Assembly (NCBI GenBank): GCA_013239625.1
Contig: MU053156.1
Coordinates: forward strand, 250,467-314,466
Length of the DNA: 64,000 bases
Direction of reading: 5' to 3'
Origin: Lama guanicoe
Lineage: Eukaryota
The translations under genes were made by a program, and so were the position numbers. Below are positions 2,499 through 64,000 of the stretch, one piece after another. The first letter of the stretch is position 1. Each line of letters begins with the position of its first letter. The notes beneath the pieces are model-generated. The model did no database searches, was not told where the DNA came from, and worked only from the letters and a program-made list of their open reading frames with translations.

Positions 2499-2609
<111 letters not shown>

Positions 2610-2918: not shown

Positions 2919-3527
<609 letters not shown>

Positions 3528-9390: not shown

Positions 9391-11924
9391 GGCGCCCGCG
9401 CCGCGCGCCCCCTTACGCCGGTCTTCCGCGCGGGGCGCCCCGCCCCCTTTTACGACAGCTCTGAACGCGCCCTGCCTTCTGTGTCATCCGGTGGGAGACT
9501 AGCTCCGCCCCTCCGAGGAGGCTCCCGCGTTGTCACCGCCCCTTACCCTGCTACCCGGCCCACACGACCTCAGAGGCGTAACCCGACAGCCTCCAGATCG
9601 CGAGATTTCTGAGAAGCCCTTCCCGGCCCGCACTGAGGCCCCGCCCCGCCCTGGAGTTTAGACCGTGGTCCGGAGAGCAGATGCCCAGCCCGAGTTGGGT
9701 ACCACTGATGGAGGGTAGGTCTTCCAGACTTTAGGGTTGATCTCAGCCTCTTGGGTGTTGCTGGGATTCAGTGTCTCTGTGGTTCGCTGGCTAAATTGAG
9801 GGTTTTTTGCTTGTTTTACCTCTTACGCTTTTTTTTTTTTAAAGTAACTGAGTCATTTTATCACAGAATACTATGTGGCTACTTAGTTGGAAAAACGTGT
9901 ATATTGCCCTAAATTGGTAAATTTAAGCTGTTGTAAAAAAAAAACTGTTGTAAAAAACTACTTCATAGTTGTGTTTACCTGTCTTTTAACTGACAGTCAA
10001 GCCTGATTCTTTCAGAGGGAAAACATGAGTTCCATTTATCTGCTAACACTTCAAATTGAAGGTCTTGATGTTATTCTGATTGACTTGAAGAGACATCTGC
10101 AGTATATGGATGTTTGGGGACATAATATTAAATAAATGATGTTTGTGAATTTTGTTACGTTAGGTGGCTTGGCTAAATATCTTCCTATAACTGTATATGG
10201 ATTTCATTTTTCAAAAACCACATTTGCCTTTACGCTAGGTTGTAAACACTCTTTATAATGCATAAAGCATGTTTTCCCTTATGTTAAATCTTTTATAACA
10301 TTTTGTATTTACATATTGTTGGTCTGTGATTATTTAAACCAGAATTTGTTAAAATATGTATATAGATAGAATACATGTGAAATAGGTTGGTGTTTATCTT
10401 ATAAACATGCATAAAGGAGGATCACAAATTATTTTCCTGTGCTTAAGCACCTTACGCCAGAGTTTGGTATGAGACGCTACTTTCTGTTTTCGAACAAATG
10501 AATTATGTATAGTCTGTGTTTTCTGCAAGCTCTATATTGTAAACTACATTCCAGACAACTACTGACTGTTATGTTTTTAGTAGTCTCTAGTTTTATATGT
10601 GACTTTTGTCCTGAAAGTAGTAAAGCCATATAGACATGTGCAAAACTAATATCATATTTGTAAATATTGAGTATGTAATATAGAAATCAACTGCGTATTT
10701 AACTGGTCTGGAACCTTCAGGGGATTAATGCAAGAAATTTGAAACAAAGATTTTAATGAACTGGTATTCAAAAGACACCAATAAATGTAGTTAAGACATT
10801 TTAGCCTCCTTGACATTGTTCCATGAATGTGGAATATTTTTCTGTGAATTTAGGTCTTAATTACTCTCAACAAGCTATTGTAGTTTTCAGTGTACAAGAC
10901 TTGTATTTTTTTTCCTTGCCTCTATCAGATGCTGATTCAGAATGTACACGACCTCCTGGAGGACCTTGCCCCTACCCTGCCATGTGCTGCCACTTAGAAG
11001 GCCTGTGAAGTCACCATAAGGTTTTGTCCTTTACTTGATTCTTAATTCTTTAGAATTTATCATTTTACTCTCATAAATGCCTGTTGTTCTTGTAACAAAT
11101 CTTTTAAAAATGAAAATATTGTACTTTAGATGAATAATGTACCATAGATGAATAATGAATGGATCACATGTAACATATGATTTTAATCCTTTTAGAATTA
11201 GTAGAGCAATAGACACATTATAAAAAATTGCAATACCACCTAAAGAAGAGATTTGCAAATGTCACCTACAGAGGTGACTGTCATGAATGGTTTGGTGCAC
11301 ATCTCTCAGTCTGTGTCTCTCTCATTCTGTCTCTCTGTTTCTGTCTCACACACTCATAATCAGATTCATTTACATCTATGTTGATTTCACACGTATGGGG
11401 TCATACAGATGGGACCCTCGATGCAGACGGTAGGTTCAGGTGCTTCCACCCTGAGGGCTCCCCTGACATCAGGTAGAGACCCTGCACCCACTTCTCCAGC
11501 TGTGCAGCATTCATTCATCCACATGGACCAGAACTGATGGATCCCATCCCTTCTTCACGAACATTAGTGTTGCTTGCAACTCCCTGTTCTTTCAGCCAGT
11601 GCTGTGATGAACATCTTTCTTTGAAAAGACATCTTTGAAAACTTGTGCAAGAACTTTGGTGGGGTCAGCTCGAAGGATCAGCACTGCTAGGAAAGGGATG
11701 CACCTGTGGAAACTTAATGGTCCTGCACCCTGTTCTCCCAGAGAGGAGTGTCTGTTCACTCTTCCCTCCAGGGGATCTGCTGGGGCCTCTGCCTCCTCAG
11801 GTTGTCACCAGACTAAAGACCTGTCAGTGTGATGTGACCAATGCTGTCTCCACAGTGTGTACATCTGCCTGAGCCCTCACCTGAGAGGTCAAGCATCTGT
11901 AACATACACTGGCCACCTGCATTG

Positions 11925-12305
11925 TCGATTTCAGGAGTAAATCTTTTAGTTCTTCAACATTGAGCATGATGTTTGCTGTGGGTTTTGCATAATGCTCTTT
12001 ATCATATTGAACACATTTCCTTTTACTTTCTTGAATATTTATGAACATGAAACATCACTGGATTTTGTGTAAAGTTTTTTCTGCATCAGTTGATATAACC
12101 ATGTCTTTTTACGTCACTTAGTGACTGGTGTATTATATTGCTTGGTTTTAATATGTTGAAAAACCTGGAATTTTGGTGAAGAGACGCTTGTAGTGCATAA
12201 TGCTTTTAATGTGCCTTTGGTTTCATATTGCTATCATTTTGTGGAGGATTCTTGCATGCATATTTAGGAAGAATTCTGGTCTGTAGTTTTCTTAACATGT
12301 GTTTG
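11925..12305 (-). mobile_element. L1 ORF2 fragment
   Basis: Antisense L1 motifs ttgagcatgatgtttgctgtgggtttt and ttttctgcatcagttgatat. Confidence 0.7.
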
Positions 12306-12319
12306 TGTGATTTGATTAG

Positions 12320-12685
12320 ATTGGGGTTGGTATCAGTGGCTTAGAGGCTTGGGGCTCGGGCTGAGGCGGGCACTGGTGCTGCAACTGGGGCTGGGTTAAG
12401 GGTTTTGGCTATGGTTATGATTCACTGTTAATAGGGTTGGTTATGGCTTCCAGTTTTGGCTATCTGGTCTTAGTCATGGATTCTGGTTCTGGTTTATGGT
12501 TTCCAGTTTCTGATTTCAGGTCTCAGGTTTGGGCAAGGGCTCAGGGTTAAGGTCTAGTGGCTAGAGTCTGGGCTCAGGGCTCCACTTGGACTTGGAATAG
12601 GGTTTGAGGATTGGGATTATACATCCTGCTAGTATACACTGGGTTGGGGTTAGGGGTTAGGGTTAGGATCAGGAGTAGGGGCTTA
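12320..12685 (+). repeat. Degenerate G/T-rich hexamer array, telomere-like
   Basis: Periodic GGGTTR/GGGCTC/GGTTCT-type units with perfect TTAGGG at 12650 and 12657, followed by TTAGGA. Confidence 0.55.
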
Positions 12686-12696
12686 ATAGTTAAGAA

Positions 12697-13023
12697 AGGT
12701 TTATTGCTGGGTCAAGCAAGGAGAACCAGCAGCTCATGAACCCAGAACCCTGAACTCCCTGAAGGGTTTCAGCTGAGCAATTTTAAAGCCTCCCTGGGTG
12801 ACCAGCTGCGTGCAGTTCTCTGGCTTTCAGTGCCGGAAGGTCTGGGGGCTGTGCACTCATGACCACCCAGCAGTTAACTCCTTCCATTTGATGGTGGTTC
12901 TTAGCACTGGAAGAAGTCAGGAAATATGCACGAGATACTGTTATCTTCAGAGAGGAGCTACAGCAGAGGATTTAGGAGAGGGATCTGTCCCAGAAAGGCC
13001 CCACAGGGTCCTGCTTGGTTACA
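12697..13023 (-). mobile_element. Partial ERV LTR, same family as 13346-13845
   Basis: Shares tttattgc, cagctcatg, gggtttcag and the end gaaaggccccacagggtcctgcttggttaca with the neighbouring copy. Confidence 0.7.
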
Positions 13024-13345
13024 CTGTTATTTGGTGATTATCCCACAGCCCCAGGGGCATTAAAAACACTGCCTGGCCCCTCTACTGCCCCCACCCCAAT
13101 AACCAAAGGAGTCCTACCAGTGTGGGGTCTGGGGAAAGGCAGCCCACATTCCCTAAGCAACCCAACCTCCCTTGGACGACTGCCCCAAGTCGAGCCCCCC
13201 ATCCACATCTCAAAAACCCCTGCTAGGACTCATGGCAGGCCCAACCTCCCCACATGAAGAAGACTGACTGTCCCAAGGAGACCCTGACCCAACCCAACCC
13301 CGAGCCCAGCCCTCATCCAGAACACCCCAGTGAAGTCACTGGCCC

Positions 13346-13845
13346 TGTTACTGGACCCAACTTGGGTCTGCTGGCCACGTGAGTGCACAGGAAAGCCAGT
13401 CTACTGACAGTGGGGCTGTGAGGAAGGAAAATGCAACGTTTATTGCAGGGCTCCAAACACGGAGTCTAGGGCAGCTCATGCTCAAAATGACCAAACTCCC
13501 CAAGGGGTTTCAGCAAAGCATTTTTAAAGGCAAGGTGAGGAAGAGGAGTCCCAGCATTTGTGATCAGCTTGTGCACAATTCTGATTGGTTGATGGTCAGG
13601 TAACAGGGCAGTGTCACAGAGGTTAACATTAGCACTCTTTGGGTGCCAGTAGATCTGGCAGCTACATGCTTATGGTCATCAAGTAGTTTATTTCTTCCAC
13701 TTGGTGGGGGGTTTGGCATCTGTAAAACAACTCAGGAATGTGCCTCAGATACTATTATCTGGGTACTTCAGAGCGGAGGGAAAGCAGAGGGTGTCAGGGA
13801 GGGGGTCTGTCCCCAGAAGGCCCCACAGGGTCCTGCTCTGTTACA
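13346..13845 (-). mobile_element. Solo ERV LTR
   Basis: TGTTA...TTACA termini, AATAAA on the minus strand (tttatt near 13440), CCAAT box (gattgg). Confidence 0.75.
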
Positions 13846-14366
13846 ACCCCTCCTCTCACAACAAAATATACATCTTCAGAGCAAGAGGTCTCAGGGGCAG
13901 AAATGCCCTCTACCTCCTATACTGCTCTGGCGTCTTGTCCACTCCGCCTCTAGCCAACGGACCCTCAAAGTTTACTGGGCACCTCTGCCCCACCAGAGGA
14001 GAAGCTGCTACCCCAGCAAACTAGGGGCCTCAGTTACTCAGCAGGCCTAGAAAACTCAAGCACTGACTGCCCCAGCTGCACGCGTCCACCCTGCCAGGAG
14101 GCATAGAGCCTGGGTGGCACTCTGACCTGGGATCCTCGGCGGTGCCACACCCATTGCCTTTCTCTGGAGTACTTTTGGAATCTCGTCTCCCTCCCCCAGC
14201 AGAAATACCGGGCCTGAGGCCTGTAAGCGCTTCCCACCCCAACAGGCCTTGCCCACACAGCCACAGGGTCAGCCTTGCACAGACCTCCTACCCCGTGGGA
14301 AAAGCACGTAGGAGAGAGGAGTGGGGAGTCCTGCTTCTCAGCGCGACAGACTGGGAACAGGGACGG

Positions 14367-14535
14367 CGACTAAAGCGCCTCCAGGGGTCCAGGAGCACAG
14401 CACCCAGAATCCCATGTGTGGCCTGGGACTACAGTACCCAGCATCCTCAGCATGCCCCGTCCCCATCCGGGGACTACATACCCAGAATCCTTGGCGTGCC
14501 CCCATTCTTGGACTACAGCATCCAGAAATCCCAGC
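14367..14535 (+). promoter_or_regulatory. Cluster of ZNF143/THAP11-type ACTACAnnTCCCA(G)-like motifs
   Basis: GACTACAGTACCCAGCATCCT (14427), GACTACATACCCAGAATCC (14472), GACTACAGCATCCAGAAATCCC (14511), plus weaker copies near 14367 and 14395. Confidence 0.55.
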
Positions 14536-15014
14536 GTACCTGGTTGGTGGCCAGTCTGGCGCCACTGTTTCCTGCTCCAATTTTTTCCCTTGAAGGTGGG
14601 CAACCAGGACCCGTGAGCATGGGCCTGCAGTGGCCTGGGCAAACCGTGTGCCATGGGCCTGTTCCTGGTTAATGCAGGGCGGACTGAGGCCAGGGGACTC
14701 CCCCTGCTGCCGGCTGGACTTTATCTCTGTGCCCCTGTGGGGCCCTGAGTCCTCTCCCCTGCCATTGGGCTCTCATGGGACCAGTGATGGTCACCTGGCA
14801 CCAGAGGCATCTGCGACTCAACCCCAGGTTTCTGCCCAGCCCAGTCTTTGAACCTCTGTGACTTCCCTGCCAGCCCTAAGGCTTGAGAGCCATACCCGCT
14901 TCCGTCTGTTGGGAAGGCCTTTCCAGCTTAGCACTCTCTTGCTTCTCCCTCCTGGTTGTTACTGAATTGGTTGAGCCGGGGCCAGGACCCCTTGCCTAGG
15001 CCAGGAAGATTCTT

Positions 15015-15550: not shown

Positions 15551-15559
15551 GTGATATTT

Positions 15560-17250
15560 CAACATTTTGATCTATCTTGTGCCTTTTCTGTTGTATGAAA
15601 AATTCTGAAGTTGTATGATTTTGAAAAAAAATCAAAATTGCATGTGTTTTTAAAATTAAACTTGAGAGTCTACAGTCTTTAGGAATATTCACTAGCTACT
15701 TAGAACTCCTTATTTGATATAAGTGGGACAAATCTCAGACAATGAGATTTTTGTCTGGTTGCATTGTGTAACGTCTTCTGAGGTACCAGAAGACATTTGA
15801 TATTTCTGCTGTCTTAGCAAAGGACTTTCCACTCACATATGTTTCCCTGACCATGCCCTGCATTTTATGTTTGTTTAGAATCCTTTTTTTCCAGGGGGAG
15901 GTAATAAAGGTTATTTTGGGAGATACAGTTAAACAAAATTAAAATCATGTACATTAGCAACATAACTCAACATCCTTAACTTGGTATAAGAGTAACACAT
16001 TTTCTTGCTTTCCTGTATTCTGTTAAATCACCATAAGCTAACAGGTAAGCTGAATTTCATCTTCACTGTTTTGCTTATGCTCTGATGCCAAACCAAACTT
16101 TTCATAAGTTTCTTTGATCTCTGAGTCCATCTCATCATCAATATCATCCAAGTATGTATCACCAGCCCCTGATAAATCTGTTCCATTTTCTTTTTAATCT
16201 GGAAAAAAAAAGTCTTCTCTTTTAAGTAATTCTCAATATTTCCCTTGATAATCTGAATCAACTGCAGGGAAAGGAATGCCATCAGATGTGTAGGATTTTG
16301 GTTCACTCATAAAATAGTCTCATCTTCAGGTGCTGCTTCTCTGTTGAGGTTGCATGGATTCTACCCCAGTTACTTGAGCAGAGTTCTACAAGATTCTTGA
16401 GCATCTGATTTACATCTCTGTGGCCATTTGCATCTAGGATGACGCTTTTCAATTCTTTACATAATTTCTTGGATACCAATCTTTCCTTTTTCCTTCCAGT
16501 ATCTTCCCAGGTGACCCTGTCAACTTCAGTAACAGTACTGCACACATTAAGTTGTTGTCCAGAGGGTTAGAAAAAAGGGCATCCAGCATCTCCTGAAGAG
16601 GACCTGCTGTCATAACCTGGTCCATTTGTTCCCTTGACCTCCAGGTTAAGATAAATTTCTTCCAATAAGAGTAAAAATGCATGGAATCATTTTCAAGTCA
16701 CTTCATTTTTTTTTTGCATCTTGTTTCTTGACTTCATAATAATTCTGATATCTTTAAAGTAGGAATTGGTGGAAACTGCCACTCTCTGAAAGTTGCCAGT
16801 TGCTAGGTCTCATGTAAGAGGATTTGAGATAGACGTGGCCTGTTTTGTTTTGTTTTGTTTTGTTTTGTTTTGTTTTGTCATGGCCTGTTGATACATGACT
16901 TCTCCATGTTCTTGCAGAACATCATCTATTGTAACACAGCCATTCACAGTGTCTGCAAACCATTCAGTTTCAGTTTCCAAACCTATGAAATGGTTTGTAA
17001 GATGACTGAAAAAGTCCTGAACATATTCATACAGAGTGGGATAATCCTGACAAGCATCCTCATAGGATTCTGTATAATTAGAGGAACAAATTAGAGGGTA
17101 AAATTCGGGGCATTCACAGACAGCTTTGACATGAATAAGGAGCCACAACCACCCGGGGCTTGGCCAGCGCTGACCCCGAGTTCTGCCGTGGCGTGTCAGC
17201 CTGTGAACTCAGTTCGTTCCCAGGAGGGCTCTCTTACAGGGTGGTTCTCA
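15560..17250 (-). pseudogene. PAIP1: Processed pseudogene of poly(A)-binding protein-interacting protein 1
   Basis: Intronless with several frameshifts. Peptides PEFYP..SSNYTESYEDACQDYPTLYEYVQDF, LDALFSNPLDNNLMCAVLLLKLTG and VILDANGHRDVNQMLKNLVELCSSNWGRIHATST match recalled PAIP1. Ancestral stop at 16065-16063, followed by probable 3' UTR down to ~15560. Confidence 0.92.
16841..16878. repeat. (TGTTT)n microsatellite inside the PAIP1 pseudogene
   Basis: Directly visible; flanked by a 9-bp direct repeat TGGCCTGTT. Confidence 0.9.
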
Positions 17251-33095: not shown

Positions 33096-33223
33096 CTGCA
33101 ATGATCATCTTTGTCATATTTTATACTTGTGGCATCAGTCTTGCAAGGAAATGACTCGTGTGGTGTTTGAAGTCGCTTACAAAGCTTGCCTGTCAACATT
33201 GGTGAACACATGCATATGATATC
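33096..33223 (-). pseudogene. EYS: EYS exon copy (equivalent to human exon 7, 128 nt)
   Basis: ttttctag|GAT ... GCAG|gtatg. Encodes DIICMCSPMLTGKLCKRLQTPHESFPCKTDATSIKYDKDDHC, versus recalled human EYS DVMCICSPIFTDLLCKSIQTSCESFPLRNNATCKKCEKDYPC. Confidence 0.85.
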
Positions 33224-34135: not shown

Positions 34136-34328
34136 CTTTGGAATATGAATGCAGTCAGTATCATTCTGACATGGTATCGGTGAACACTCAATGACATCAG
34201 TTTCACAATTTTGATTGAGAAAGCCTCTGGGCATTCCCCAGTGTAAGCAGAGCTCTCATTTTGACTAATTCCTCCTTTCCAGCAAGACTGAGAAACACAG
34301 TGTTCCATTGACTCCTCACAGATTGGGC
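34136..34328 (-). pseudogene. EYS: EYS exon copy (equivalent to human exon 6), EGF-like repeats, with a 1-nt frameshift
   Basis: ttttaag|GC ... AAG|gtaagt. Encodes GPICEESMEHCVSQSCWKGGISQNESSAYTGECP/[frameshift]/GFLNQNCETDVIECSPIPCQNDTDCIHIPK, versus recalled human GPFCEVSAKPCVSLLFWKRGICPNSSSAYTYECPKGSSSQNGETDVSEFSLVPCQNGTDCIKISN. Confidence 0.87.
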
Positions 34329-37260: not shown

Positions 37261-40200
37261 GGGGAGGAGCCAAGATGGCAGAGTAGAGAGACCCCCAGCT
37301 TGCCATCTGCCACAAATAAACCAAGAATTACATCTACAAGCTCACTGAATCACACAGAACAACTAATGCACTCTGTCAGAGTGTCTCTCATTTCAAAATA
37401 CAAGAGGATTCTCAGAAAATCTGGTAAGAAAAAAAAGAAAAAACTCGGTTCAGGGCCAGTCTTTCAGGGACTGACTGGCACAGGAAGAAAGGCGCCCTCA
37501 CCCTGGGATGCCCCCTCTATCGCCAGGTGGTCAGCGGGGACAGAAGCGGGGCTTCCGTGGTTCAGAGGAGAAAGTGGCAACTGCGTGGCAGACAGAACTA
37601 CGGGAAACTGATGCAGAGGGTCCCTGTGACCCCCAGCCCTAGATGCGAGCCAGCAGGGACAAGCCAGGACTGGCTTCAGGAGATTGCTGAGCAGCCCAGG
37701 CAGAGGGCTGGGCCCCAGTCCACAGAGGCAGCCTCAGGCGACTGGAGGATGGTGTGACTTCTGGCTGGGGGTGTGTGTGGAACAGAACAACCTGGGACCC
37801 TCATAAAACACCACGGCTGGTGTGAGTGAGGGGAGGGGCGCGATGCATCCATGCCATGGCCGCTTTCTCTGCTTCGTTCCGTTGTTACTGTGTCCACATG
37901 AGAAGAGAGGTGGCGCTTGGTCATAGCCATCACTGCTGTGGGGAGGCAGGGCTGAAGCTGAATCCACACCCAGTGGCCCTGCAGCCAGTGGCACAGGCAG
38001 GACTGAGGTTTGTTTACAGTCCCAGGCAGAGAGGGCAGTTATGCTCTTCCTGGACCTTCTGTGGACCCACGCCTCTGGGGTGAACATGCAGTGCGCAGAG
38101 CTCTGACCCATGGTGTGGGCGGGCACAGGTACTCACAACAGGCTGGTGGGCCCTACTGTGTGTGCAGGTGGGGCTGGAGTCGGCACTGAAACCCTGGCAT
38201 GCCGCAGGCTCAGGCTTGTGACTGCACGCCTGCTATGGCAGGTCCTAGCTCCTGACATTGGCAGATCTGGACTCGTGGTTACTGGGGCTCAGAACCTGGG
38301 GGATGGCAGAGCTGGTGGCTGACATTCCTGCAGCTAAGGTGGAGACAAAGGGAGTGTCAATAAAGAGCATCTTGTAAGCCTGTGTAACAAGTGACAGTTA
38401 ACTTCCAAGTGGACACGCCCTGCCTACTCTCCTTCCCAGCTGCAGTGCTCCCACCCCACCTACCACATGGCACAGCTCACAAATGGGTATAGAAGCCGAT
38501 ATTCTAGGGAGCAGACTTGGGCACTGACAAGGCTGTGACAACTACAGAATGAAAAAGGAGGTCCAGCTCAACAACAATCAGGGCAGGCACCGAGCACCAT
38601 GCCCCCAGCCACACGGCCCGTCGTACGAGTGAAATGAAGAAGCAGAGGAACCACTCCCAGTTAGAAGAGCAAGAGAAATCCCATGAAAATACAGTTAATG
38701 AAATAGACCTCAGTAGTCTACTAGATCATGACTTCAGAAAGGGAATGATGAATGCATGGAAGGAACTAAAAGAGACTATCAATAGAGACACAGAATACTT
38801 TAAAAAGGAAATTAAACTATAAAGAAGAGCCAATTAAAAACAAACAACTCAATGTCTGAGATAAGAGCCAAGGTAAAAGCTGTCAAAAGCAGACTAGACA
38901 AGGCAGAGGAATGAATAAGTGTCTTAAAGACAGGACAACAGAAGGCAATCAGAACAGCAGACAGAAAAGCAACTAAGAACCAGTTAAAGCAACATAAGGG
39001 ACCTATGGGATCGTAGAAAGCATGCCGACCTATGCATCGTAGGGGTCCCAGAAGGAGAAGAAAGAGAAAAGGGGATCGTAAAGTATTCTAAGAAATCACG
39101 ACCGAAAACTTTCCAAACCTATAGAAGGAAGCAGATACCCAAGTGCAGGAGGCACAGGGATTTCCAGACAAGAAGAACCCGAACAGACATTCACCAAGAC
39201 ATATTATAATTAAGTAGAAAGAAAGGATTCTAAAGGCAGTAAGAGACAAACAAAGAGTTCGTTACAAGGCAACCTGCATAAGGCTTTCAGCTGATTTCTC
39301 TACACAAACACTGCTGGCTAGAAGGGAGAGGCAAGATACATTCAAAGTCCTGAATGAGAAAGAGCTGCAACTTAGGATATTTTATCTGGCAAGACTATCT
39401 GTTACAGTAGAAGAAAAAGAAAGAATTTCACAGACAAGCAAAAGCTAGGAATTCAGCAATACTAAATCCATATGTTAAGAGAAATATTGAAAGGTCTGCC
39501 CTAAATAGAAAAGAAACAGGAAGCTACAGAAATGAGAAAGCCATAATTGGAGATGTGATAACTACAATGAGTTGCAAGAGCATAAACATGAAGACATAAA
39601 AATAAATAAATAAAAATAAAGAACATAAAAATCATAAAAAGGTGGGAGAGGAAAGCAAGAAAATATAGATTTTTTTCTCTCTCTTTTTCTTTTATTTTTC
39701 TTCTTTCTTTCTTCTTTTTTTAGGATGTGTTTGAGCCTACATGACTATCAGTCTAAAGCAAACAGATATAGTAAGAGGTTAACATACTTGAAAAATAGGA
39801 TAACCAGAAATCAAAAGCATACAACAGAGTCACAAAAGCCAAGAAGAAACCAAGCTAATACAAAAGAAAGTTATCAAACCACAAAAAGGAAAATAAAGAA
39901 ATAAAGAAGAAATACCAAATCAACTGGAAAACAAAAGTCAAAATGGTAGTAAACACACATCTATCATTACCGTAAATGTCAGTGGATTAGATGCTCCAGT
40001 ATAAAGACACAGAGTGGCAGATTGAATACTCCAACCAAAGCTTACAACATGCTGCCTACAAGAGACCCACTTTAAAGTGAAGCACACACACAGGTTGAAA
40101 GTGAGAGGAGGGAAAGATCTTTCATGTAAATGGAAATGACAAGAATGCGAGAATAGCAATACTCATATCAGACAAAATAGACTTTAAAACAAAGGCCATA

Positions 40201-41006
40201 AGGAGAGATAAAGAAGGATACTATATAATGATCAAAGGAGCAATACAAGATGAGGCTATTATGCTCATTAACTTATATGCACCCAATAAAGTAGCACCTA
40301 AATACATAAAACAAATACTATCAGACATAAAGGGAGAAATTAATGGGAATATAATCACAGTGGAGACTTTAACACCCCACTAAGACCTAAACAAGCAATT
40401 CTCCAATGAAGACACACAAATGGCCAATAGGCACATGAAAAAATGCTTAATATGGCTAATTATCAGAGAACTGCAAATCAAAACTGTGAGATGTGATCTC
40501 AGACCCAGTCAGAATGGCCATCATCCAAAGCCCACCAACAATAAATGCTGGAGAGGCTGTGGAGAAAGGGGAACCCTCCTACACTGCTGATGGGAATGCA
40601 GTTTGATGCAGCCATCGTGGAAAACAGCATGGAAATTCCTCAAAAGACTAAAAATAGACTTACCATATGATCCAGCAATCTTACTCCTGTGCATATATCC
40701 AGAGGGAAACTTAATTCAAAAAGATGCCTGCACCCCAATGTTCATAGAAGCACTATTTACAATAGCTAAGACATGGAAACAACCTAAATGTCCATCAACA
40801 GATGACTGGATAAAGAAGCTGTGGTATATTTATACAATGGAATACTACTCAGCCATAAAAAAATAATTAAAGAAGGTCATTTGCAGCAACATAGATGGAA
40901 CTGGAGATCATCATTCTAAGTGAAGTAAGCCAGAAAGAGAAAGAAAAATACCATATGATATCACTCATATGTGAGATCTAAAAAAGAGAAAGAAAGAAAG
41001 AAAGAA

Positions 41007-41037
<31 letters not shown>

Positions 41038-41180
41038 GAAGAAAGGAAGGAAGGAAGGAAGGAAGAAAAAGACAAGCAAACTTATTTATAAAACAAAGTT
41101 ACAGACATAGAAAACAAACTTATGATGACCAGGGGAGGAGGGGGTGGGAAGGGATAATTTGGGGCTTTGAGATTTGTAGA
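37261..41180 (+). mobile_element. L1 with 5' UTR and disrupted ORF1, internally deleted ORF2, truncated 3' UTR
   Basis: Starts ggggaggagccaagatggc. ORF1 remnant from 38634 (MKKQRNHSQLEEQEKS). ORF2 endonuclease from ~39942 jumps at ~40381 to the ORF2 C-terminus ([22 protein letters not shown]). Confidence 0.92.
40981..41070 (+). repeat. (GAAA)n/(GGAA)n microsatellite in the L1 3' UTR
   Basis: Directly visible. Confidence 0.9.
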
Positions 41181-51709: not shown

Positions 51710-54700
51710 TTTTATTTTTTTTTAATTGTGAACACTTAAAATGTGAGCTGTTCTGTCTGAACAAAATTTCAAGTATACACTATAATATTATTAAATACAA
51801 GCACTATGTTTTACAACAGATCCCTAGAACTTCTTCCCCTTGCATAATTGAAATTTTATAGTCTTAAAAAAAAAACACCCATTTTCATCTCCCTCCAGCC
51901 TTTGGAAACCACCATTTTACACTCTGCTTCTACGAATTTGACTACATTAGGTATCTCATATGTGTGGAATCATACATTACTTTGTCATTCCATAGCTGGC
52001 TCATTTTACTCAGTATAATGTCCTCCAGGTTCATCCTGGTTGCTGTACATGGCAGGGTTCCCTTCTTTTCAAAGGCTGAGCAATATTCCAATGAAAGTAT
52101 ATACCATAATTTCTATATCCATTCATGTGTGAGTGGGCGTTTATGCTGCATTCATATCTTGGCTATTGCAAATAATTATGCAACGAACATGGGAATGAAA
52201 ATATCCTTTGGGGGCTCCTGACTCCACTTATTTAGGCTGTATACTGAGAAGTGGGATTGCTGGGTCATATAGTAATTCTGTTTTTAATATTTTGAGAATC
52301 ATAGTGTTTTCCATAGCAGCCAGGCCATTTTACATTCTCATCAACAGCGTACAAGGTTTCCAGTTTCTCCACAGCCTCTCCAACACTTTTCTTCTGTTCT
52401 TTTGATAACAGCCACCCTAACGAGTGTGAAGAGCTGTCTCACTGTCTTCATCTGCATTTCCCTGACGGTTAGTGATGCTGAGCACATTTTCTTACACCTG
52501 TTGGCCATGTGTATGTCCTCTTTGGAAAAATGTCTATTCAAGATTTTGCTCATTTTTAACTGGGTTATTTGTTTTTTGTTACTGAGTTGCAGGAGTTTCT
52601 TATATATTTTGGATATAAACACCTTATTGAATGTAAGGTTGGCAAGTAGATCCTCCCATTCTCTCAGGTTGTCTTTTCATTTTATTGATTCTTTGTGCAG
52701 AAGCTTTTAGTTTGATACAGTTTCACTTGTGTATTTGGAGGTTTGTTTCCTGTGCGTTTGGTGTCATATGCAGGGAATATTTGCCAAGGCCAGTGTCAAA
52801 AAGTTTCTCCTGTATGTTTTGTTCCAGGAGGTTTATAGTTTCAGGTCTTACATTTAAGTCTTTAATCTATTTTAAGTTGATTTTTACTTACAGTGCAAGA
52901 TAAGGGCCCAGTTTCATTCTCTGAATGTGGATATTCAGTTTTCCCATCACCCTTTGCTGAAGGGTCTACGCTCCCCGCCTTGTGTGTTCTTTCCCCCTTG
53001 TTGAAGATCAGTAGATTACATACATGTAGGTTTATTGTCAGTCTGTTTTGTTCCATTGATTCATATGACTATCTCTAAACCAGTCATACAGTTTTGATTA
53101 CTGTAGTTTTGTAATATGTTTAGAAATCAGGAAATATGATGTGTCCAACTTTGTTCTTTCTTAGTATTTCTTCAGGTGTTAAGGATTTTTTTCTAGTTCT
53201 GTAAGCATTTTTGACTGTCTTTCTATATCTGTAAAAAAATGTCATTGTGAATTTGATGGGAATAGCACTGAATCTGCGGATTGCTTTTGGTAGTATGAAC
53301 ATTTTAACATATTAGGTCTTCTGATACATCAATATATATTTCCATTTATTTCTGTCTTCTTTTGTTTCTTTCTTCAACATGTTGCAGTTTTCATGGTACG
53401 AATCTTTCACCTCCTTGGGTAAGTCTAATCCCAATTATTTTGTTGACTTTGATGTTAGTGTGAACAGGATTGTTTCTTTAATTTCCTTCTCAGATGGTTC
53501 ACTGTGTGTATAGCAATCAATTTTTGCATATTGATTTCAAATCTTACAATTTTATTGGATTTGTTTATTAGTTCTAACACTTTTTTATGAGGCCTTATGG
53601 TTTTCTACATATAAGACCATTTCGTCTGCAAACAGGGTTATGATTACTCCTTTACCAATTTGGAATTCTATTTCTTTTTTTCTTCTTCTTCTAATTGTTT
53701 CGGCTAGGATTCCCAGTACCTTGTTGCACAGAAGTGGTGAGAGGGAGCACTGAGGCCCATGCCTTGTATCCCTAGTTTGTTAAGAGTTCTTACCATAAAA
53801 GAGAGTTGAATTTTGGCAGATGCTTTTTTCTGCATCTATTGAGAAAGTCACGGGATTTTTCTGTCTTATTCTGTTAACGTGGTGTGTCACATTACTGACT
53901 GTGCTTGCTGAACCATGCCTACATTCAGGGGGGATAAGGCCCGCTTTTGATTATGGGGTGTGAGCCTGTTGACTTTGATGGGCTGGTATTTTGTTGAGAA
54001 GTTTTGCATGTATGTTCATTTCATCAGGGATATTGACCTATAACATTCTTCTCTTGTAACACCTTTGCCTGGCTTTGGTCTGTGGGTAACCCTGAGCTGG
54101 TAAAATAGTCTGGAACGATTATTTCTCCTTCAATTTGCTGCAGGCGTTTGAGAAGGAGTGGCAGTAATTCTTTTTTAAAATGCTGGCTGGAATTGACCAG
54201 TGAAGACATGTGGTCCTGGGGCTTTCTGTTTTTGGAGGCTTTTGATTACTGATGAAATCTCTGTACCAGTAATTAGTCTGTTTACATTTTATATTTCTTC
54301 ATTATTCAGTCTTTGTAGGTCGTATGTTTCTAGGAATTAATCCATTACTTTAAGGCTATGTAAGCTGTTGGCGTGTATTTGTGTATAGTATTCTCTTTTA
54401 ATCCTTTCTTATTTCTGTGATATCAGTTGTAGTTTGCTTTTATTTATTTGAATCATCTCTGTTTTTTCTTAGTCTAACTTACATCTGTCAATTTTGTTAA
54501 CTTTTAGAAACCCAACTCATTTTGATTTTTAAAAATATTTTTCTATACTCTGTTTTGTTTATTTTTGCTCCAAGTTTTATTATTTCCTTTCTTAACTTTT
54601 GGCTTAGGTTATTCTTCTAATTCAATAAGGTGTAAATTTAGGTGGTTTATTTGAAGTCTTTCTTCATTTTCGATGTAGGTGTTTATCAATATAATCTTCC

Positions 54701-55250: not shown

Positions 55251-56249
55251 TTGTTTCTTATGTCTGTAATTATTTAAATGTATGCTGGGCTTTGTGTATT
55301 TAAGAACAGTTGAGGTGGAAGTGAATCTTGGTTCCCTGTAGAAAGAGGCATGCCTCTTGCTCTTCAGGCCATGGGTGTGTAGAGACTGAGTCAATTTCTT
55401 TTGTAGTTTAGCTGAATCTGGTCTTTGTTTGTTTTGTTTGCTTTGTTTGTTTGACTTAGATCCTATTCTCCACTGTCTTCATAGGTTTTAAGCAGCATTT
55501 GTGGAGACTGGAGCAATCTTTAATACGTGTTGACCAGCCAGCAGCCCATTCCTAACTTCTTGTGCTTCAGGGCCATCTGTGCCCATCCGGCTGCTCCGGC
55601 CCCAGCTTTGCAGAGCCCTGGGGGATCCTCTCTGGGTCTTTCCCTGTCCCACTCTTCAGCCTAGCCACATGTAGCCGTTAGAAGTTGGTTTGGAGTTGGG
55701 CTGGATTCTCCTTCATCAGATCTGTGGCGTTTGCTCTTCTCCCACCGTAAGTCTCTTCTCTTCTAGGAAAGGCTTTTCATTTTCTAGAATTTAGTTAATT
55801 GTGGTTTCTTTAGTCCTCAACTCTCTGATGGGTTTTTAAAAAGCAGTGATTTTGTGGTTTGCCTGCCTGGCTTGTTCTTGATTTTTAGAGTAAGGGCAAT
55901 GGTCTCTTGCAAATTTCTACATTGTTCTTAGAAACAAAAATCCACTGACACTATTCTGAATAAATTCAGTAGTCTTAGGGATTTTAAAGGTTATATTGTT
56001 ATTTGTTGAAAAATGAGTTTCCAGAAAATCTCAGTGCACGTTAAGACAATTTATTGTTAAACATATTTTCTAAAGGGAGGCATAAATAATTTGCTTTTGA
56101 CTTATCTGAATAGGAGCAGGGAGTTAGGCCTGGGATTCTTTATCATGAGTGATCCCCACAGCTTTAATGAGCCGCGGTTACTGAGGAAGGACACCTGAGT
56201 TCACAGGTGCATCGGGCAGAAAAGAGGTTCGCCCCCCCTGCCCCGGGCT

Positions 56250-56432
56250 GGGGCAGAGGTTGGCACGCTGCCTTTGCAAAGGACCCCGTTGTAAAGCTTT
56301 AGGCTTCGTGGGCTTCTGTTACGTATTGTTACTTGGCTTTGTTTTTCACAGTCTTTAAAAATGAAAAAACGTTCATAGCTGAAGCTGTGTAAAAACAGAA
56401 TCTGGGCCAGGACGTAGTTTGCTGATCCCTGG
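56250..56432. mobile_element. MER58-like DNA transposon
   Basis: Terminal inverted repeats cagaggttggca ... tttgctgatccctg; internal ttaggctt. Confidence 0.6.
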
Positions 56433-56657
56433 GCTAGATGATCTTTATAGTCATTTTTGGTCTCAAAGTTATTTTGAATTTCTCTGAACTACTGTGCATT
56501 CGGAATAGTGATGTGTGAAAATACAGAGGCTCTTAACTATAAAGCATTCTTTTCAATAATGGCCTCAACGTATCATACATGTAAACATATTTGATGTTAT
56601 GTAGGCTTTTACATATTCCATCAGATTTAAAGGAAGTCCTTTCATCTTTCTTTTTAG

Positions 56658-56975
<318 letters not shown>

Positions 56976-57366
56976 TGAGATTAATTAGGCTTTGACGTGT
57001 TTACCCTTTTCTTTACAAAGTGGGGGTTATTTTAAAGTGTTTTTAAGGTTTGTTAATGGGTAGGGAAGAACTATTTTCCCTAAATCTGTTCTTTGTGGCT
57101 AGTAAAAAAAAAAAAAAGTCACCTCCCCCAAAGCTCCAACACTTAGTTATATGTGTCAGTAAATGCTGCTTGGGAACAAAACCAAAATTTTAAATTGTTT
57201 TTAAAATGAAAATACTTGGTCTACATGCTTGAGTTTTCCCGACATAACCAAACTTGGCTATATTTTAGTTCAGTGGTTGATGTGAAGGACCACAGAGAAT
57301 TGGATGCCTTTCTGGTATACTTTCGTGTTAATAGAAATTTTTTTGGTGACACAGTTCCAGTTTTAA

Positions 57367-57648
<282 letters not shown>

Positions 57649-57744
57649 TGATTGTGTCATTTATTCTACAGGGCCGTACCTTCCTCGTTTATAAGGCATT
57701 CTAATTTATTTCTGATTGAAGAAGCGCATCCTTGTTTAGAAATA

Positions 57745-57920
57745 GCTAACATGTATTGAGCGCATACCAGCCATTGCTCCAAGTGTTTTTTCCATGTTTA
57801 TTCATTTACTGCAGCAGCATTTTGAGCCTCACACAGTGTGGATTTTCATGTTACGTTGGGAACTGAGACTTCATGGGTTAAGTCACTTCCTGAGGCTCAT
57901 CTTAATTACTGCACTCTCTG
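57745..57920. mobile_element. MIR SINE
   Basis: atagctaacatgtattgagcgc ... ggaactgagacttc ... gttaagtcacttcctgagg. Confidence 0.65.
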
Positions 57921-60603
57921 CCTCCCGTGGCCTTTGATCACAGACAGGCCTAGATTCTGAATCAGAATCTGATTCTGAATTGTGGTTTGATTGTCACCTC
58001 TATGTTGTTTTGTTTCATTTTTTGTTTTGGAGGTTTTTTGTTTTTTAAAGCTGTTAAAGAGGATCTAGTTAAGTAAATTTTTTAAGGGGTGAAGCAGATG
58101 GTGGTAATAAAAATATTCATTAAATACCGTTTGTAAAATAATAAGTTAATTCATGCTGAGTACTGCATAGTGGTGTTTTATAACAAGAGGCCAGTATATT
58201 ATTTGATGAGTGAAATAAAACTGAAGTTGATGAACACCAACCCCCGTCCCCGGTGCAGAAATCTGCGTGTGCAGCTGTCTGCTCACGGTCACCAGCCTTC
58301 CTGGGCAAGCTTTCCTGGTTCTCCAGCCAATCTCTCTCTCCTGTTCTCTTTAATAATTGTTTCAAACCCTTCTTCTCCTCTTAGAAATCTTTGGTCTTGC
58401 CTTCTCTGTTCTCTCTCACTCATCACTGTGTAAGGAACAGTCTTAGGAAAGGAACTCCTCACTGTGTGTCACCAGCCTCCGTTTGTCCTGTCCATGTCTC
58501 TCCTTGTCTGCAGCCCCTGCTCGTCCCCGGGTCTCCCGTCAGAAGCAGAACCTTCCCCTGGCCCATGTCTTTCTCGCCCCACATTTCTGCTTCCTGTGGG
58601 CTCTGTCTTGTCCCCCTTACCAGCTCCTCAGCTCGCCCCAGCTGGGCTGCCTCCCGGCTCCAAGAGCTGCTCCTGCAGGGTCACCAGTGTTGGTCACGAG
58701 GTGCCCAGACGGCACAAGGTCACTTTGCTCTGTTCCTCACTCACATTGACAACACTGGCTTGCCCCTGCTCTTCGAAGCACTCTCCTCCGTCTTACTTGT
58801 CCCTTGTCCCACCCCGTCCCACCCCCACTGTCTCTTTTCTGGATTCTCCTCTTGCTCCCGCCCTGTGCCCCTCTCCCTCACCTGACACACTTCCTGGTCA
58901 CCTCGCAGCTCTAACCAGGGACCCTAGCAACTGTCCTGAGGCACATGACTTCCATCTTTATTCTTCCCTACATGTCACTCCTGAGCCTCATGCCTTTACT
59001 TCTAATCATTTACTGTCAGTATCGCTTTGAAAGGCTCCGCAACACAACACTCCAGATGCGGCCCATGAACTGCTGCCATCATTTCCACGTCCACCGCCGC
59101 CCTCCTGCCCTTACCTGTTCTTGGTGCAAATGGCCCTGAACTCACCCTTTTGCTCAGGTCGTACACCCGGCGCCTGGGGAGTTGATCCGGACTCCTCTCT
59201 CCCTCACGCCTACAGCGAATCAGAGGGTGGAGAGCGTGCGTTCTGAATAGCCTGTGTGTGTTTTTATTCTCCCCACCTCACTTCACCCCCTTGCGACAAC
59301 CATCTCTAGTTTATCTGATTAGAAAGACTATTCTGACTGGTCCTCCACCGTCCAGTTCCATTCACCAGTCCATGCCGTTCTCTTCTCTGCAGCCAAGTCA
59401 GTGTTCAGTCAAGCAGTCTGATCCAGCTCTTGCCCCTGCTTTCAGCCAGCTCTTGGCCTTCTCTCGCACTGAAAAATAGTTTAGACTCAGGGAGGTTACC
59501 GTGGCTCCGGCAGTCCGGCCCCTATGCAGGCCGCTCGTCCTCCTCTCTGGTCCTACTGGATGCTCTTCTCTTTTTGGAATATAAAATGTGTGTTCTCGCT
59601 CACGTTTCTCCCGTCATCTGCGCTCAGCCTGGAGTGCTCCTTCCTCTGTCCTTGCCTTGGTAACTACTGTGTATCCTGCGGGTCTTAAATACCACTGCCA
59701 AAGGCTTTCCCTGATTCTCTAGAACAACCTTCCTTCCTTTTTCTCTTTCTTCCTCTAAATACGGTAAACGCTGCAAACACACAAAACCATCCTGGGCGTA
59801 GCCCAAGCCACCTGGGCCCCCCGACCCCGCGTGTAACAGATGTCAGTGTTGTGCCTTATTTGCCTCAGCTCTTTTCTGATCTAATATTTGAATACTTGAT
59901 ACATTCACATGGTTTAAAAGTAAACATAAAAGAGGATTCAGTGAACAGTCTTCCCTTCTATGTCCTCTAGCCTCAATTTCTAAATTAATGTTACTAGTTT
60001 TATGTATCCTTTTTGAGATATTATATACACATGCAAGCAAATACAAATGCATATTCTTCACCTAACCCTTGTACACAGATGGTAGTGTATTACGCATACT
60101 GTTTCACACCTGGTTTTTCATTTTAACATGTTACACATATATTTAAAAAATTTATATGTATGTATATATGGATCTTTCTGTATCATTACATAGAGAGCTT
60201 TTTCATTCTTCTTGTTTTTTTAAGTCACAGTATTCCATTGTTTAGATATTCTGTAAGTCATATCAGTAGCTCATATTAGCTTATTTCAGTCTTTTTTTTA
60301 CTACCACAAATAATGCCATAATAAATAACCCTCTATATAAATCATCCGCACATGCAGTTTGTCTGTGATAAAAATTCCTGGACGTGAAATTGCTGGGTCA
60401 AAGAACAATGTGTTTGTCATTTTGTTAGCTGTTGTCAAGTTGCCCTCCATGTAGTTTTATCAGTTTAGCTTCCCAGTAGCAGAGTCCGGAGACACAGTCA
60501 GTGTGGTCACCTTTGGAGAAGTCTGAAATGAAAAATGGTGCTGGACAGAGTATAGTTATATTTTGTTCATTTCTTCTTATGCATGAATTTTGAGTAGCTT
60601 CAT

Positions 60604-60765
60604 TAATTTTTTTAACTTTTTTTAATTGAGTTATAGTCATTTTACAATGTTGTGTCAAATTCCAGTGTAGAGCACAATTTTTCAGTTATGCATGAACATA
60701 TGTACATTCATCGTCACGTTGTCTTTCGCCGTGAGCCGCCACAAGATCATGTATATATTTCCCTG
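60604..60765 (-). mobile_element. Short 5'-truncated L1 3' end with target-site duplication
   Basis: Poly(T) then L1 3' terminus; TGAGTAGCTTCAT duplicated at 60591-60603 and 60766-60778. Confidence 0.85.
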
Positions 60766-61649
60766 TGAGTAGCTTCATAATTTAAAAACCATTAGTGTTT
60801 TCTGAGAACTTTCTGTTTTTCTACTGGATTATTTTCAATAGTATTTCTGAAATTTTGATTCTGAGACCACCTTCATTGAGTAAATATTTAATGATCCGTG
60901 CTAGCTACTGGTGCTAAAGACATAGTTTTTGCCTTCCTAACGCTTACAGTGACACAGTAAATAAACAAAACCTAATGTAATAGAGAATAGCTGTTTGTTG
61001 GGTGGACTATATTAATTCAAGTAGGCCCAACTGATAGCAGATCAGTAGACCCCCAAAATCCGGTAGCTAAAGGAATAAAAGTACTCTTTTTTATGTAATA
61101 GTCCTGCATGGGTGTTCAGGTTAGTGGTGTGGCTCTCCCCTACCGTCCTGTGACTGCCCGTCCCCGAGGGCCTGGTTGTCTGCTGCCTCCAGCAGGCAAA
61201 GGACCTGGGAGGTAATTTAGGGGCCAGATCTAGCCATGACATAGGGACTTTCATTCATATTCTTTTGACTAAAACAGTCACATGGCCATGTCTTGTACAG
61301 GGGAGGCTAGTATATGGGGTGCAGTCATGTGCTCAGGAAGAAGAATATGTTTTTTGAGGACAACTAGTAGCCTCTGCTGCAGAAGTTGGGGCAGCATTAG
61401 CCGTGGTGGTGAGGGGAGACTCTGAAACTGAAGGGGTGAGGAAGAAGCATCCAAGCAGAAATTAGAAATCAGAGCATTCTAGGCAGAAGGAAACAATAAG
61501 GACAAATACCCTGAGGCATTTAAAAGATTTTGACCAGGTAGAGGAATGGAAGGAAGACCCTGTATAGTCGGAGCCCAGGTGGCTGGAGGGAAAGGTTGGA
61601 GAGATGAGCATTGTACAGATTGCGCAGGTTGCACATGGGTTTGGGATGG

Positions 61650-63240
61650 TTCTGTTTATCCATTCATTCATTGGTGGACACTTAGGTTGTTTCCATGTTT
61701 TGGCTATTGTAAATAATGCTGTAGTGAACATGGGGTACATGTATCTTTTGAAGATAGTATTTTTGTTTTCTTCAGATAAAGACCTAAAAGTAGAGTTGCT
61801 GGATATGGTCGCTTTGTTTTTAATTTTTTGATGAACCCCCGTACTATTTTCCACAGTGGCTGCCCCAGTTAATATTCCCACCAACAGTGGGAGTCCCTTT
61901 TCTCCACATCCTTGCCAACGTTTGTTATTTGCTGTCTTTTTGATAATAGCCATTCTAACAGGTGTGAGAGGATATCTTGTCATGATTTTGATTTGCATTT
62001 GCCTGATGACTGATGGCGTTGAACATCTGTTCTTGTACCTGTTGGCCATCTGTGTGTCTTCTTTGAAACATGTCTATTCAGATCTGCTCATTTTTTAATT
62101 GGATTGTTTGGGTTTTTGCAGTTGAGTTTTAGGAGCTCTTTATATATTTTGGATACTGGCCCCTTATCAGAGACACGATTTACAAATGTTTTCTCTGATG
62201 CAGTAGGTTGCCTTTTCATCTTGTTGGTTCCTTTGCTGTGCAGTAGTCTTTTAGTATGATGTAGTCCCATGTGTTTATTTTTGCTATTGTTGCTTTCGCT
62301 TTGGTGTCAGATTCAAAACATCATCACTAAGACCTGTGTCAAAGAGCTTACCACCTATGTTTTCTTCTGAGAGTTTTATGATTTCAGGTCTTAGGTTCGA
62401 GTCTTTAATCCATTTTGAGCTAATTTTGGGGTTTGATACCAGATAGTGGTTGAGTTTCATCCCTTTGTATGGCTGTCTAGTTTTCCCAGCACAGCTTGTT
62501 GAAGAGACTGTCCTTTCTTCATTGTATATTCTTGGTTCCTTTGTCATAAGTTAATTGATCATATATGCGTGGGTCTATTTCTGGGTTCTCTGTTCTGTTC
62601 CATTGATCTGTGTGTCTGTTTTTATGCTATACTCTACTGTTTTAGTGACTATAGCTCTGTATTATAGTTTGAAATCATAGAGCATGATGCTTCCATCTTT
62701 GTTGTTCGTTCTCAAGATTGCTCTGGCTATTCAGTGGTTTTTTTGTGGATCACAAATTTTAGAATTATTTGTTCTCTAGTTTTTTGAAAAAGACCACTGG
62801 AATTTTGCCATAGGGATTGCATTGAATCTGTAGATTGCTTTGGGTGGTTTGGACATTTTAACAACATTGATTCTTGCCATCTGCGATCATGGACTATCTT
62901 TCCATTTATTTTGTCTTCTATTTCTTTTATTAGTGTCTTGTTTTCAGTATACAGCTCTTTCACTTCCTTGGGTAAATTTATTTCTAGGTATTTTATTTTT
63001 GATGCCATTGTAAATGGGACTGTGTTCTTTATTTCTCTGTTTGATATTTCCTTAGTAGTGTACAGAAATGCAGCAGATTTCTGTTATTGATTTCATACCC
63101 CACAACCTTACTGAATTCATTTATTAGTTCTAACAGGTTTTTGATGGAGTCTTTATAATATCATGTCGTCTGCAAATAGTGACCATTTTACTTCTTCATT
63201 TCCAATTTGGTTGCCTTTTATTTCCTTTTCTTGCCTTGGG
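61650..63240 (-). mobile_element. L1 ORF2 fragment
   Basis: Minus-strand peptides REMQIK-like, YPMFTTALFTIAKTWKQPKCP and KIKYLEINLPKEVKELY. Confidence 0.92.
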
Positions 63241-63506
63241 CTCCACCTGGTCCCTTCGCTCTGCTTGGATTTTTATGTTGGCAGTTTCTCTCCTGTCATC
63301 ACTTTGGTCATTCAATAAATAATATCAGGACTGAATATTTTAGCTTTTAGTGAGGGGCTACGTAGTAATAACATTTTTTTTAATAAAACTCTTTTATACC
63401 TATTCTATAAAAGCCAGTGCTGTGGTGAGTGCTTGTCCAGCCCCGACCCTGCTGCCCCGCAGTGGTGAAGGGCAGCTTCCCCAGGCCTGGCTCTCTCTCC
63501 TGACAG

Positions 63507-63696
63507 AGACGCCATGGTTGGGGACCTGATGCCAGCCGGCATGGTCGCCCTGGTGGAGTGTCCCTCGTTCTCTTCCTCGGCACCCCCTTCCCACATGTCT
63601 GCCATGGCCAGTACCATGAATGGAGAGGAATGTGTGCTGGCTGTTGATACTGAAGACAGGCTGGATCCAAATCCATGGCAAGAAAAGACGGGGGAG
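63507..63696 (+). other. Unassigned exon-like segment with open frame
   Basis: Polypyrimidine acceptor ctctctctcctgacag|, donor GAG|gtaaaa. Frame DAMVGDLMPAGMVALVECPSFSSSAPPSHMSAMASTMNGEECVLAVDTEDRLDPNPWQEKTGE. GC-richer island between L1 pieces; parent gene not identified. Confidence 0.45.
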
Positions 63697-64000
63697 GTAA
63701 AAGCAGGTGGTAGAGCAATGAAGCAGTCTTAGATCAGGAAGGAAAAGGCAGCTGATTACTAGCTTATTGTAAAGTACATGAAAAAGGGTACAGGAATAGT
63801 CAGATGAAGAGGTGCACAGGAGGGTGTCTGTAAACGTCTGTGAGGTCAAGGTGGTAGGTGGTCTTGTTGAAATCGTCTGTATCTTTACTGATTTCTGTCT
63901 ACTTGTTCTATCAGCTGTTGCAAGTTGGGTTTTGAGATCCCAGCTGTCGTTGTGGATTTGTCTCCTTTTGACATTTCTGTCACTTTTTCCTTCACGTGTT

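Follow-up and report, generated by a model that had tools for sequence, protein, structure and literature searches.

Fragments of EYS, DYRK1A and PAIP1 upstream of DGCR6 in Lama guanicoe: a probable old patchwork at the position of human LCR22-A

The DGCR6-side boundary on human chromosome 22 is the seat of LCR22-A, the low-copy repeat that drives the 22q11.2 deletion. In published work, the DGCR6/PRODH module forms the distal edge of LCR22-A (PMC9690962), and human 22q from 17.14 to 30.83 Mb is assigned together with distal 12q to 12b-22b, the smallest ancestral eutherian chromosome, with 22q from 14.4 to 17.03 Mb going to another protochromosome, 12a-22a (PMC2681463). LCR22-A extends over hundreds of kb, its modules are 97-98% identical, and they include USP18, GGT, BCR, RIMBP3, FAM230 and PI4KA. 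Human subtelomeres offer a second described parallel, being duplicon patchworks with internal degenerate (TTAGGG)n islands. Here, we analyzed a stretch of 64,000 nucleotides of Lama guanicoe (assembly GCA_013239625.1, contig MU053156.1, positions 250,467 to 314,466 of the forward strand; hereafter the window), a piece of mammalian DNA containing no N, in which the promoter of DGCR6 is followed by 54 kb that carry pieces of EYS, DYRK1A and PAIP1. We consider it probable that these 54 kb are an old and inert patchwork situated where an ancestral synteny block ends.

The mosaic in the window has in common with human LCR22-A its position relative to DGCR6 and PRODH, the ancestral block boundary and the presence of foreign gene pieces; as in human, DGCR6 separates it from PRODH and has its promoter on the mosaic side. 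It differs in measuring tens of kb, in holding old fragments and in having no high-identity repeats, and none of the LCR22-A modules named above was detected in it. The domains of these modules were absent from a Pfam screen of 600 of the 621 stop-to-stop open reading frames (ORFs) of at least 40 amino acids (the 21 shortest were left out), a screen that is insensitive to decayed pieces: it also missed the PAIP1, EYS and DYRK1A fragments, and others may have stayed unseen. We take DGCR6 to lie just inside the 17.14-Mb edge in the genome build used for the ancestral reconstruction; given this edge and the 12b-22b assignment, DGCR6 would be terminal in an ancestral block. In cattle, the gene is near the end of chromosome 17. 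In non-primates, orthology to human DNA is not to be expected for the sequence past DGCR6, which may represent a chromosome end there. The first-pass annotation, made from the same sequence, had equated the site with the position of human LCR22A, which agrees with the published block boundary (PMC2681463, PMC9690962). That annotation had also called the site a reused breakpoint; this is not required, as nothing more than the original end of the 12b-22b block may be involved. A limited literature search found no report linking DYRK1A, EYS and DGCR6 in camelids, and PMC3225868, PMC6598621 and PMC13751797 yielded nothing on the interval upstream of DGCR6.

One of the gene pieces consisted of two consecutive DYRK1A-like exons on the plus strand (Table 1). 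The ORF at 56658-56975(+) matched human DYRK1A residues 414-516 (PDB 9krj_A) with an E value of 4.2e-56 and 94 of 103 residues identical. A protein database search with exon A yielded 392 proteins at E <= 0.001 from 604 candidates; among the 120 matches listed, all named proteins were DYRK1A or a close homolog, from mammals to sharks, and the best identity was 91%. Using full-length DYRK1A proteins as tblastn queries, we located a second exon at ~57472-57580 and no other DYRK1A exon in the window. The copy is without residues 1-413 and, with them, most of the kinase domain. Reading of the DNA placed an intron of 478 bp between exons A and B, with AG and GT at all four boundaries, and the spliced pair had 145 codons and no stop. 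A DYRK1A fragment with an intron on the plus strand, as annotated in the first pass, is thereby confirmed as two exons at 56658-57570. Several unrelated DYRK1A loci in metagenomic DNA had the same start of exon A, EYKPPG. One of these metagenome contigs (L002, 3272 bases) carried a compact vertebrate-type DYRK1A piece with the same exon boundaries as the fragment in the window, the two matching exons being separated by an intron a few hundred bases long.

Compared with the reference protein P0005, the DYRK1A copy showed 18 mismatches over 144 residues (17 when a residue specific to a bat is not counted), and a CAG run was longer by one codon. The exon A-B segment of the other vertebrate DYRK1A proteins examined was 88-100% identical to that of mammals; approximately five residues of exon A differed in turtle, and shark and mammalian DYRK1A scored alike against the copy. 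With 17-18 of 144 residues changed in so strongly conserved a segment, the copy cannot be the working DYRK1A gene. The same divergence suggests that a parent copy is present elsewhere in the genome, and a protein divergence of 12% points to an old event and not to ongoing activity. Some 17 replacements over ~330 non-synonymous sites correspond to ~0.05 per site; at substitution rates of 1-2.2e-9 per site per year, the copy would be ~25-55 million years old. In simulations, the frame stayed stop-free in 33-47% of trials with 20-30 random substitutions. The open frame is therefore no evidence of use and is compatible with neutrality. The exons lay within a block richer in GC and CpG than its flanks, in which the observed/expected (o/e) CpG ratio was 0.39-0.54 in sub-blocks of 55500-60400 except for 0.21 in the DYRK1A intron, whereas the left and right flanks had ratios of 0.11 and 0.30, respectively. 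The GC-richest part of this block (58401-59700, plus strand; GC 0.55, 42 CpG) had a strong excess of C and T on the plus strand and contained Pro/Ser-rich ORFs of 166-198 amino acids with no match in Pfam or the ESM Atlas.

A second piece, on the minus strand, comprised two EYS-like exons, X and Y. Searches with tblastn (queries P0125, P0126, P0127, P0134 and P0137) and inspection of the DNA revealed a 0.9-kb intron between them, bounded by AG/GT sites; predicted EYS proteins from a lemur and two dolphins were 68-76% identical to the exons. A phmmer search of the ORF at 34135-34329(-) against 1.84 billion proteins gave 13 matches, the close ones being a Sousa chinensis hypothetical protein that clusters with the Lipotes "protein eyes shut homolog" (P0125, 72%), the Manis "Protein Eyes Shut" (P0127, 73%) and the Propithecus "protein eyes shut homolog" (P0126, 51% overall). 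The exon end at QFSG in P0135 agreed with the start of exon X. Decay was evident in exon X, in which a deletion of one G near 34224 shifted the frame, splitting the tblastn match into pieces in two frames, and two EGF cysteines were replaced. An apparent in-frame stop at the start of exon X was dismissed, as it falls in the intron. Neither exon had a Pfam EGF match, EGF regular expressions matched none of the six frames, and a word-based protein search with the EYS-like ORF gave no candidate. EYS sequences of 302-581 residues, shorter than the full-length protein, detected no further EYS exon in the window. The intron-bearing EYS fragment on the minus strand described earlier thus exists, and it is small, decayed and limited to two exons. 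The Cys-to-Ser change at 34262-34270(-) (GGISQN) was common to two dolphin predictions (GEISQN) and absent from lemur and pangolin; it may predate the camelid-cetacean split or reflect parallel decay.

Since the DYRK1A and EYS pieces kept their introns and canonical exon boundaries, both are DNA-level copies and not retrocopies, in agreement with the first-pass annotation, which had placed intron-bearing pieces of these two genes beside DGCR6. In retaining consecutive exons, introns and splice sites while decaying, they resemble non-processed pseudogene fragments of the kind produced by segmental duplication or duplicative transposition. Segmental duplications are usually defined by at least 1 kb at >=90% identity, and protein divergence suggests that the pieces in the window are older than typical annotated ones. 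Human DYRK1A is located at 21q22 and human PAIP1 at 5p12. Human EYS is given as 6q12 in a published abstract.

The third piece, a PAIP1-like sequence, is new in this analysis. The ORF at 16813-17208(-) matched PAIP1 (PDB 3rk6_A/6yxj_B) over chain residues 17-74 with an E value of 2.3e-14, and minus-strand ORFs farther along, in other frames, matched chain residues 160-190 (E 1.9e-08) and 190-236 (E 1.6e-04). These pieces were colinear, and because ~220 residues fit in ~0.7 kb, the copy has no introns; it is therefore a processed pseudogene that arrived as RNA. In a three-frame reading, PAIP1-like text continued from ~17233 to 16041 and appeared to reach the C-terminus. The copy is like other processed pseudogenes in being intronless, colinear over at least 220 residues and frameshifted, and unlike them in showing neither a poly(A) tail nor a target-site duplication, with no T run of at least 8 downstream at 14.5-16.0 kb; their absence is likely due to decay with age. 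Processed origin is excluded for the DYRK1A and EYS pieces by their introns. The retrocopy probably accounts for one of the "orphan exon-like pieces" noted in the first pass: such a piece exists, and it is a processed pseudogene and not a duplicon. PAIP1 retrotransposition is an ordinary event with no bearing on a duplication hub.

Another element of the patchwork was a degenerate telomere-like tract, located 3 kb away from the CpG island of DGCR6; its G-rich strand points away from the gene. In a sliding count, hexamers within one mismatch of TTAGGG reached 71 per 300 bp at 12150-12700, far more than anywhere else in the window (median 8, 95th percentile 18). The segment at 12320-12690 contained 89 such hexamers, compared with 28.9 +/- 8.0 in mononucleotide shuffles, none of 500 of which reached 89, and 21 exact hexamers, compared with 2.0 in shuffles. 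The best-kept part consisted of ~3-4 near-perfect units at 12644-12668. A 12-mer with one mismatch was found twice (12644 and 12657), and 6 of 100 shuffles did as well; Tandem Repeats Finder (TRF) called no tandem array at 12.1-12.7 kb, and runs of two or more exact TTAGGG units were absent from the whole window. The "telomere-like array" of the earlier description is thus real as a worn interstitial tract and overstated as an array; together with the exon-like pieces, this is where that description, sound in its core, went too far. Like the patchwork of human subtelomeres, the window has a degenerate tract that points away from the last unique gene, and pieces that derive from several chromosomes lie past it; it differs in that the tract is short, with 3-4 good units. 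A tentative extension, which we rate as possible but less than even, is that the tract is a relic end of the 12b-22b protochromosome and that the DNA past it is an old subtelomere-type patchwork. Two direct copies of an unidentified repeat (12690-13100 and 13430-13845, plus strand) started right past the tract; they were ~70% alike (12824-13023 versus 13637-13845), and each opened with a sequence of the type gtttattgc...cagctcatg...aagggtttcagc. A head-to-head telomere fusion involving 13.0-13.35 kb was considered and rejected, as the stretch there is C-rich but not CCCTAA.

Table 1. Features of the 64,000-nucleotide window, with strand and supporting evidence
Feature	Position	Strand	Evidence or remark
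PRODH 3' coding end (last part, proline dehydrogenase domain)	682..1143	+	Pfam Pro_dh, E 1.2e-15, 58.2 bits, cutoff 27
DGCR6 gene	2502..9390	-	Exon 1 ~9016-9390; others 4011-4112, 3102-3248, 2502-2588
CpG island, DGCR6 promoter and exon 1	8700..9700	.	GC 0.694; then GC drop
Degenerate telomere-like tract	12150..12700	+	~0.4-0.55 kb; G-rich strand on plus
GC by interval	12.7-15.5 kb		0.54
PAIP1 processed pseudogene	16041..17233	-	Intronless; several frameshifts
(AAACA)n microsatellite within PAIP1 copy	16841-16878		TRF
GC by interval (surrounds EYS pieces)	30-36.5 kb		0.34
EYS-like exon Y	33096..33223	-	~Lemur EYS residues 364-405; AG acceptor and GT donor
EYS-like exon X	34136..34328	-	~Lemur EYS residues 299-363; splice sites present
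GC by interval	36.5-39.2 kb		0.49
GC by interval	39-55 kb		0.35
L1 fragments: ORF1 dsRBD piece and 3' end, (AGAA)n tail	39218..41068	+	Pfam Tnp_22_dsRBD 27.5 bits, cutoff 22.2; self-alignment
(AGAA)n tail	40987-41068		TRF
Old L1 fragment	51947..53779	-	Self-alignment, 67% to other L1 pieces; RVT_1 19.9 bits, below cutoff
GC/CpG-richer block with DYRK1A exons	55451..60100	+	GC 0.458 versus 0.35-0.375 in flanks
GC by interval (surrounds DYRK1A pieces)	55.45-60.1 kb		0.46
DYRK1A-like exon A	56658..56964	+	Human residues 414-516; acceptor AG 56656-56657, donor GT 56965-56966
DYRK1A-like exon B	57443..57570	+	Human residues ~516-557; in frame with exon A
Old L1 ORF2 fragment	61465..63229	-	Self-alignment; L1 ORF2-type ORF translations, recognised by eye

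These features probably came together as follows. Non-coding, L1-rich DNA of patchy composition would have passively gathered pieces of genes that work elsewhere. EYS exons X and Y and the DYRK1A exons (residues 414-557) would be short genomic segments copied or transposed as DNA, introns included, and the PAIP1 piece would be an RNA-derived retrocopy made by L1. The site, with its worn TTAGGG-like tract, would be the end of the 12b-22b block, and DNA near chromosome ends and at breakpoints typically accumulates a patchwork of this kind. To judge from the decay of the DYRK1A copy, the events would be tens of millions of years old. No fragment is able to make its parent protein.

The first-pass annotation had instead proposed a lineage-specific duplication hub, which as an active camelid counterpart of LCR22A would still be acquiring interchromosomal duplicons. 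Such a hub would fit the presence, within 54 kb at the LCR22A boundary, of a telomere-like tract, a patchy base composition and pieces of three genes that are unrelated to one another; however, only two pieces are DNA-mediated, both of them small, and the third is a retrocopy. Nothing in the window repeated at >=90% identity in self-alignment (the best match, 87% over 291 bp, was an L1 end), the DYRK1A copy is diverged at the protein level, and no domain typical of LCR22 modules appeared in the insensitive Pfam screen. We found no sign of current duplication activity in the region and regard an active hub as unlikely. An assembly artefact, in which unrelated contigs were joined and the fragments are not truly beside DGCR6, is very unlikely. 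Repeat-rich, AT-rich DNA is error-prone, but the window contains no N, and diverged copies are not what misplaced parent loci would be. Moreover, the segment at 54500-61000, flanks included, was represented at 0.52-0.66 of sampled words in 14 runs (5 organism labels, 5 studies, kept as contigs), which argues against a private artefact and suggests that several closely related taxa carry the segment, while saying nothing by itself on the spanning of junctions.

Two further explanations concern how single pieces arrived. In transposon carriage, for example by an antisense L1 in a DYRK1A intron, unspliced exons would have been inserted by 3' transduction. In keeping with this, the DYRK1A block is closely followed on its right by a minus-oriented L1 fragment (61.5-63.2 kb), and a (CAAA)n-like minus-strand tail lies left of it (55424-55452), but the carried segment would be ~6 kb and usual L1 transductions are far shorter. 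A target-site duplication was looked for without success (shared words were at most 7 bases long, a length attained in 261 of 300 shuffles) and no suitably placed L1 accompanies the EYS piece, so we consider carriage highly improbable. It is also quite improbable that the EYS piece is the sole surviving remnant of these exons, rearranged to this site in a lineage with a decayed EYS. EYS has been lost in several species, as stated in PMC8127272; the closest matches of the piece are decayed EYS predictions of dolphins and pangolin, and the GGISQN change recurs in the dolphin sequences. On the other hand, conserved synteny cannot account for two exons within 1.2 kb beside DGCR6, given that EYS is a gene of 2 Mb that belongs to a different chromosome.

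Several points weigh against an old and inert patchwork. The open frame and intact splice sites of the DYRK1A pair would also be compatible with use, and a bolder reading would be that this splice-competent pair is used in a camelid transcript. The age estimate draws on protein changes only, and a CpG o/e ratio of ~0.5 in the DYRK1A block would indicate either a younger age or low methylation. The extent of the DYRK1A-derived duplicon was estimated from composition alone. The anatomy of the fragments, their introns and their decay are read directly from the sequence; the mode of arrival, the age, the existence of parent copies and the chromosome-end context are inferred. A metagenome scan for parental DYRK1A DNA with a degenerate 45-base motif retrieved 29 loci, 18 of which could be aligned to the window; all were non-mammalian, with <=76% identity confined to the exon, and the same motif gave 0 loci in a genome-contig collection. 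Finally, the shuffles used for the telomere-like tract preserved base composition but not dinucleotides. With regard to RNA, two RNA-seq runs labelled "reproductive system metagenome" contained 0.18-0.20 of the words sampled from 54500-61000, and the share was 0.16 in two further runs whose kind is uncertain; RNA word shares for this segment (0.06-0.20) were given no weight as evidence of transcription.

If the patchwork is what we propose, a block end with foreign pieces and a telomere relic in a mammal distant from human would suggest that this boundary was of chromosome-end type before primates, and would provide a comparative handle on why LCR22-A formed at the DGCR6 boundary. Should the tract also be a relic end of 12b-22b, human LCR22-A would have grown on a former chromosome end, and its instability would have been inherited and not have arisen twice. 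As it stands, the fragments are small, old and inert, and the analysis contributes an annotation of three pseudogene pieces and an interstitial tract of telomere-like sequence.

The composition shift past the DGCR6 CpG island reported in the first pass was confirmed, with GC of 0.579 over 1-9800 and 0.393 over 9801-64000; it fell from 0.58 at 8-10 kb to 0.38 at 10-12 kb and was 0.33-0.41 directly past the island, and the CpG o/e ratio was 0.80 at 8-10 kb and 0.12-0.47 farther out. Short GC-rich tandem repeats were called by TRF at 9227-9406. Pfam likewise upheld the identities of DGCR6 (E 2.9e-39 at 8896-9483(-)) and PRODH, which are arranged tail to tail, with PRODH on the plus strand and DGCR6 on the minus strand, so that the 54-kb interval is on the promoter side of DGCR6. 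The DGCR6 exons were placed by tblastn with the orthologous proteins of Camelus, pig, dog and cattle. Among named DGCR6 proteins, that of Camelus was the closest, with the first 36 residues and the last exon identical and the residues upstream of the start different; this fits the camelid lineage suggested in the first-pass annotation. The frame of DGCR6 exon 1 was open into the intron (8962-9016, minus strand), and 14 intron-coded residues were identical in the Camelus "DGCR6L isoform X1" prediction, which may be an annotation read-through.

Within the 54 kb, the Pfam screen detected no intact gene, in line with the earlier statement and within the sensitivity given above; its one match above a curated cutoff was the L1 ORF1 domain. 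The three L1 fragments were 67-70% alike. Two ESM Atlas queries with the longest ORFs (58434-59027 and 14067-14669) were at noise level (0.82 and 0.75; recognition 847 and 872), PDB sequence searches with the ORFs 63408-63728-, 63469-63729+, 48070-48273+ and 20350-20661- gave 0 matches each, and an amino-acid composition score for coding-like ORFs proved too noisy for use. An unexplained GC-rich patch at 36500-39200, reaching 0.61 at 37.5-38.0 kb, contained ORFs of 109-132 amino acids on both strands with no Pfam match, as well as an A-run at 37429-37436. The sole Rfam match across the window was a tRNA-like element at 25622-25789(+) (Rfam tRNA, 33.6 bits; tRNA-Leu by ARAGORN), directly followed by a 34-bp tandem repeat rich in A; the two resemble the head and tail of a short interspersed element derived from a tRNA and not a tRNA gene.

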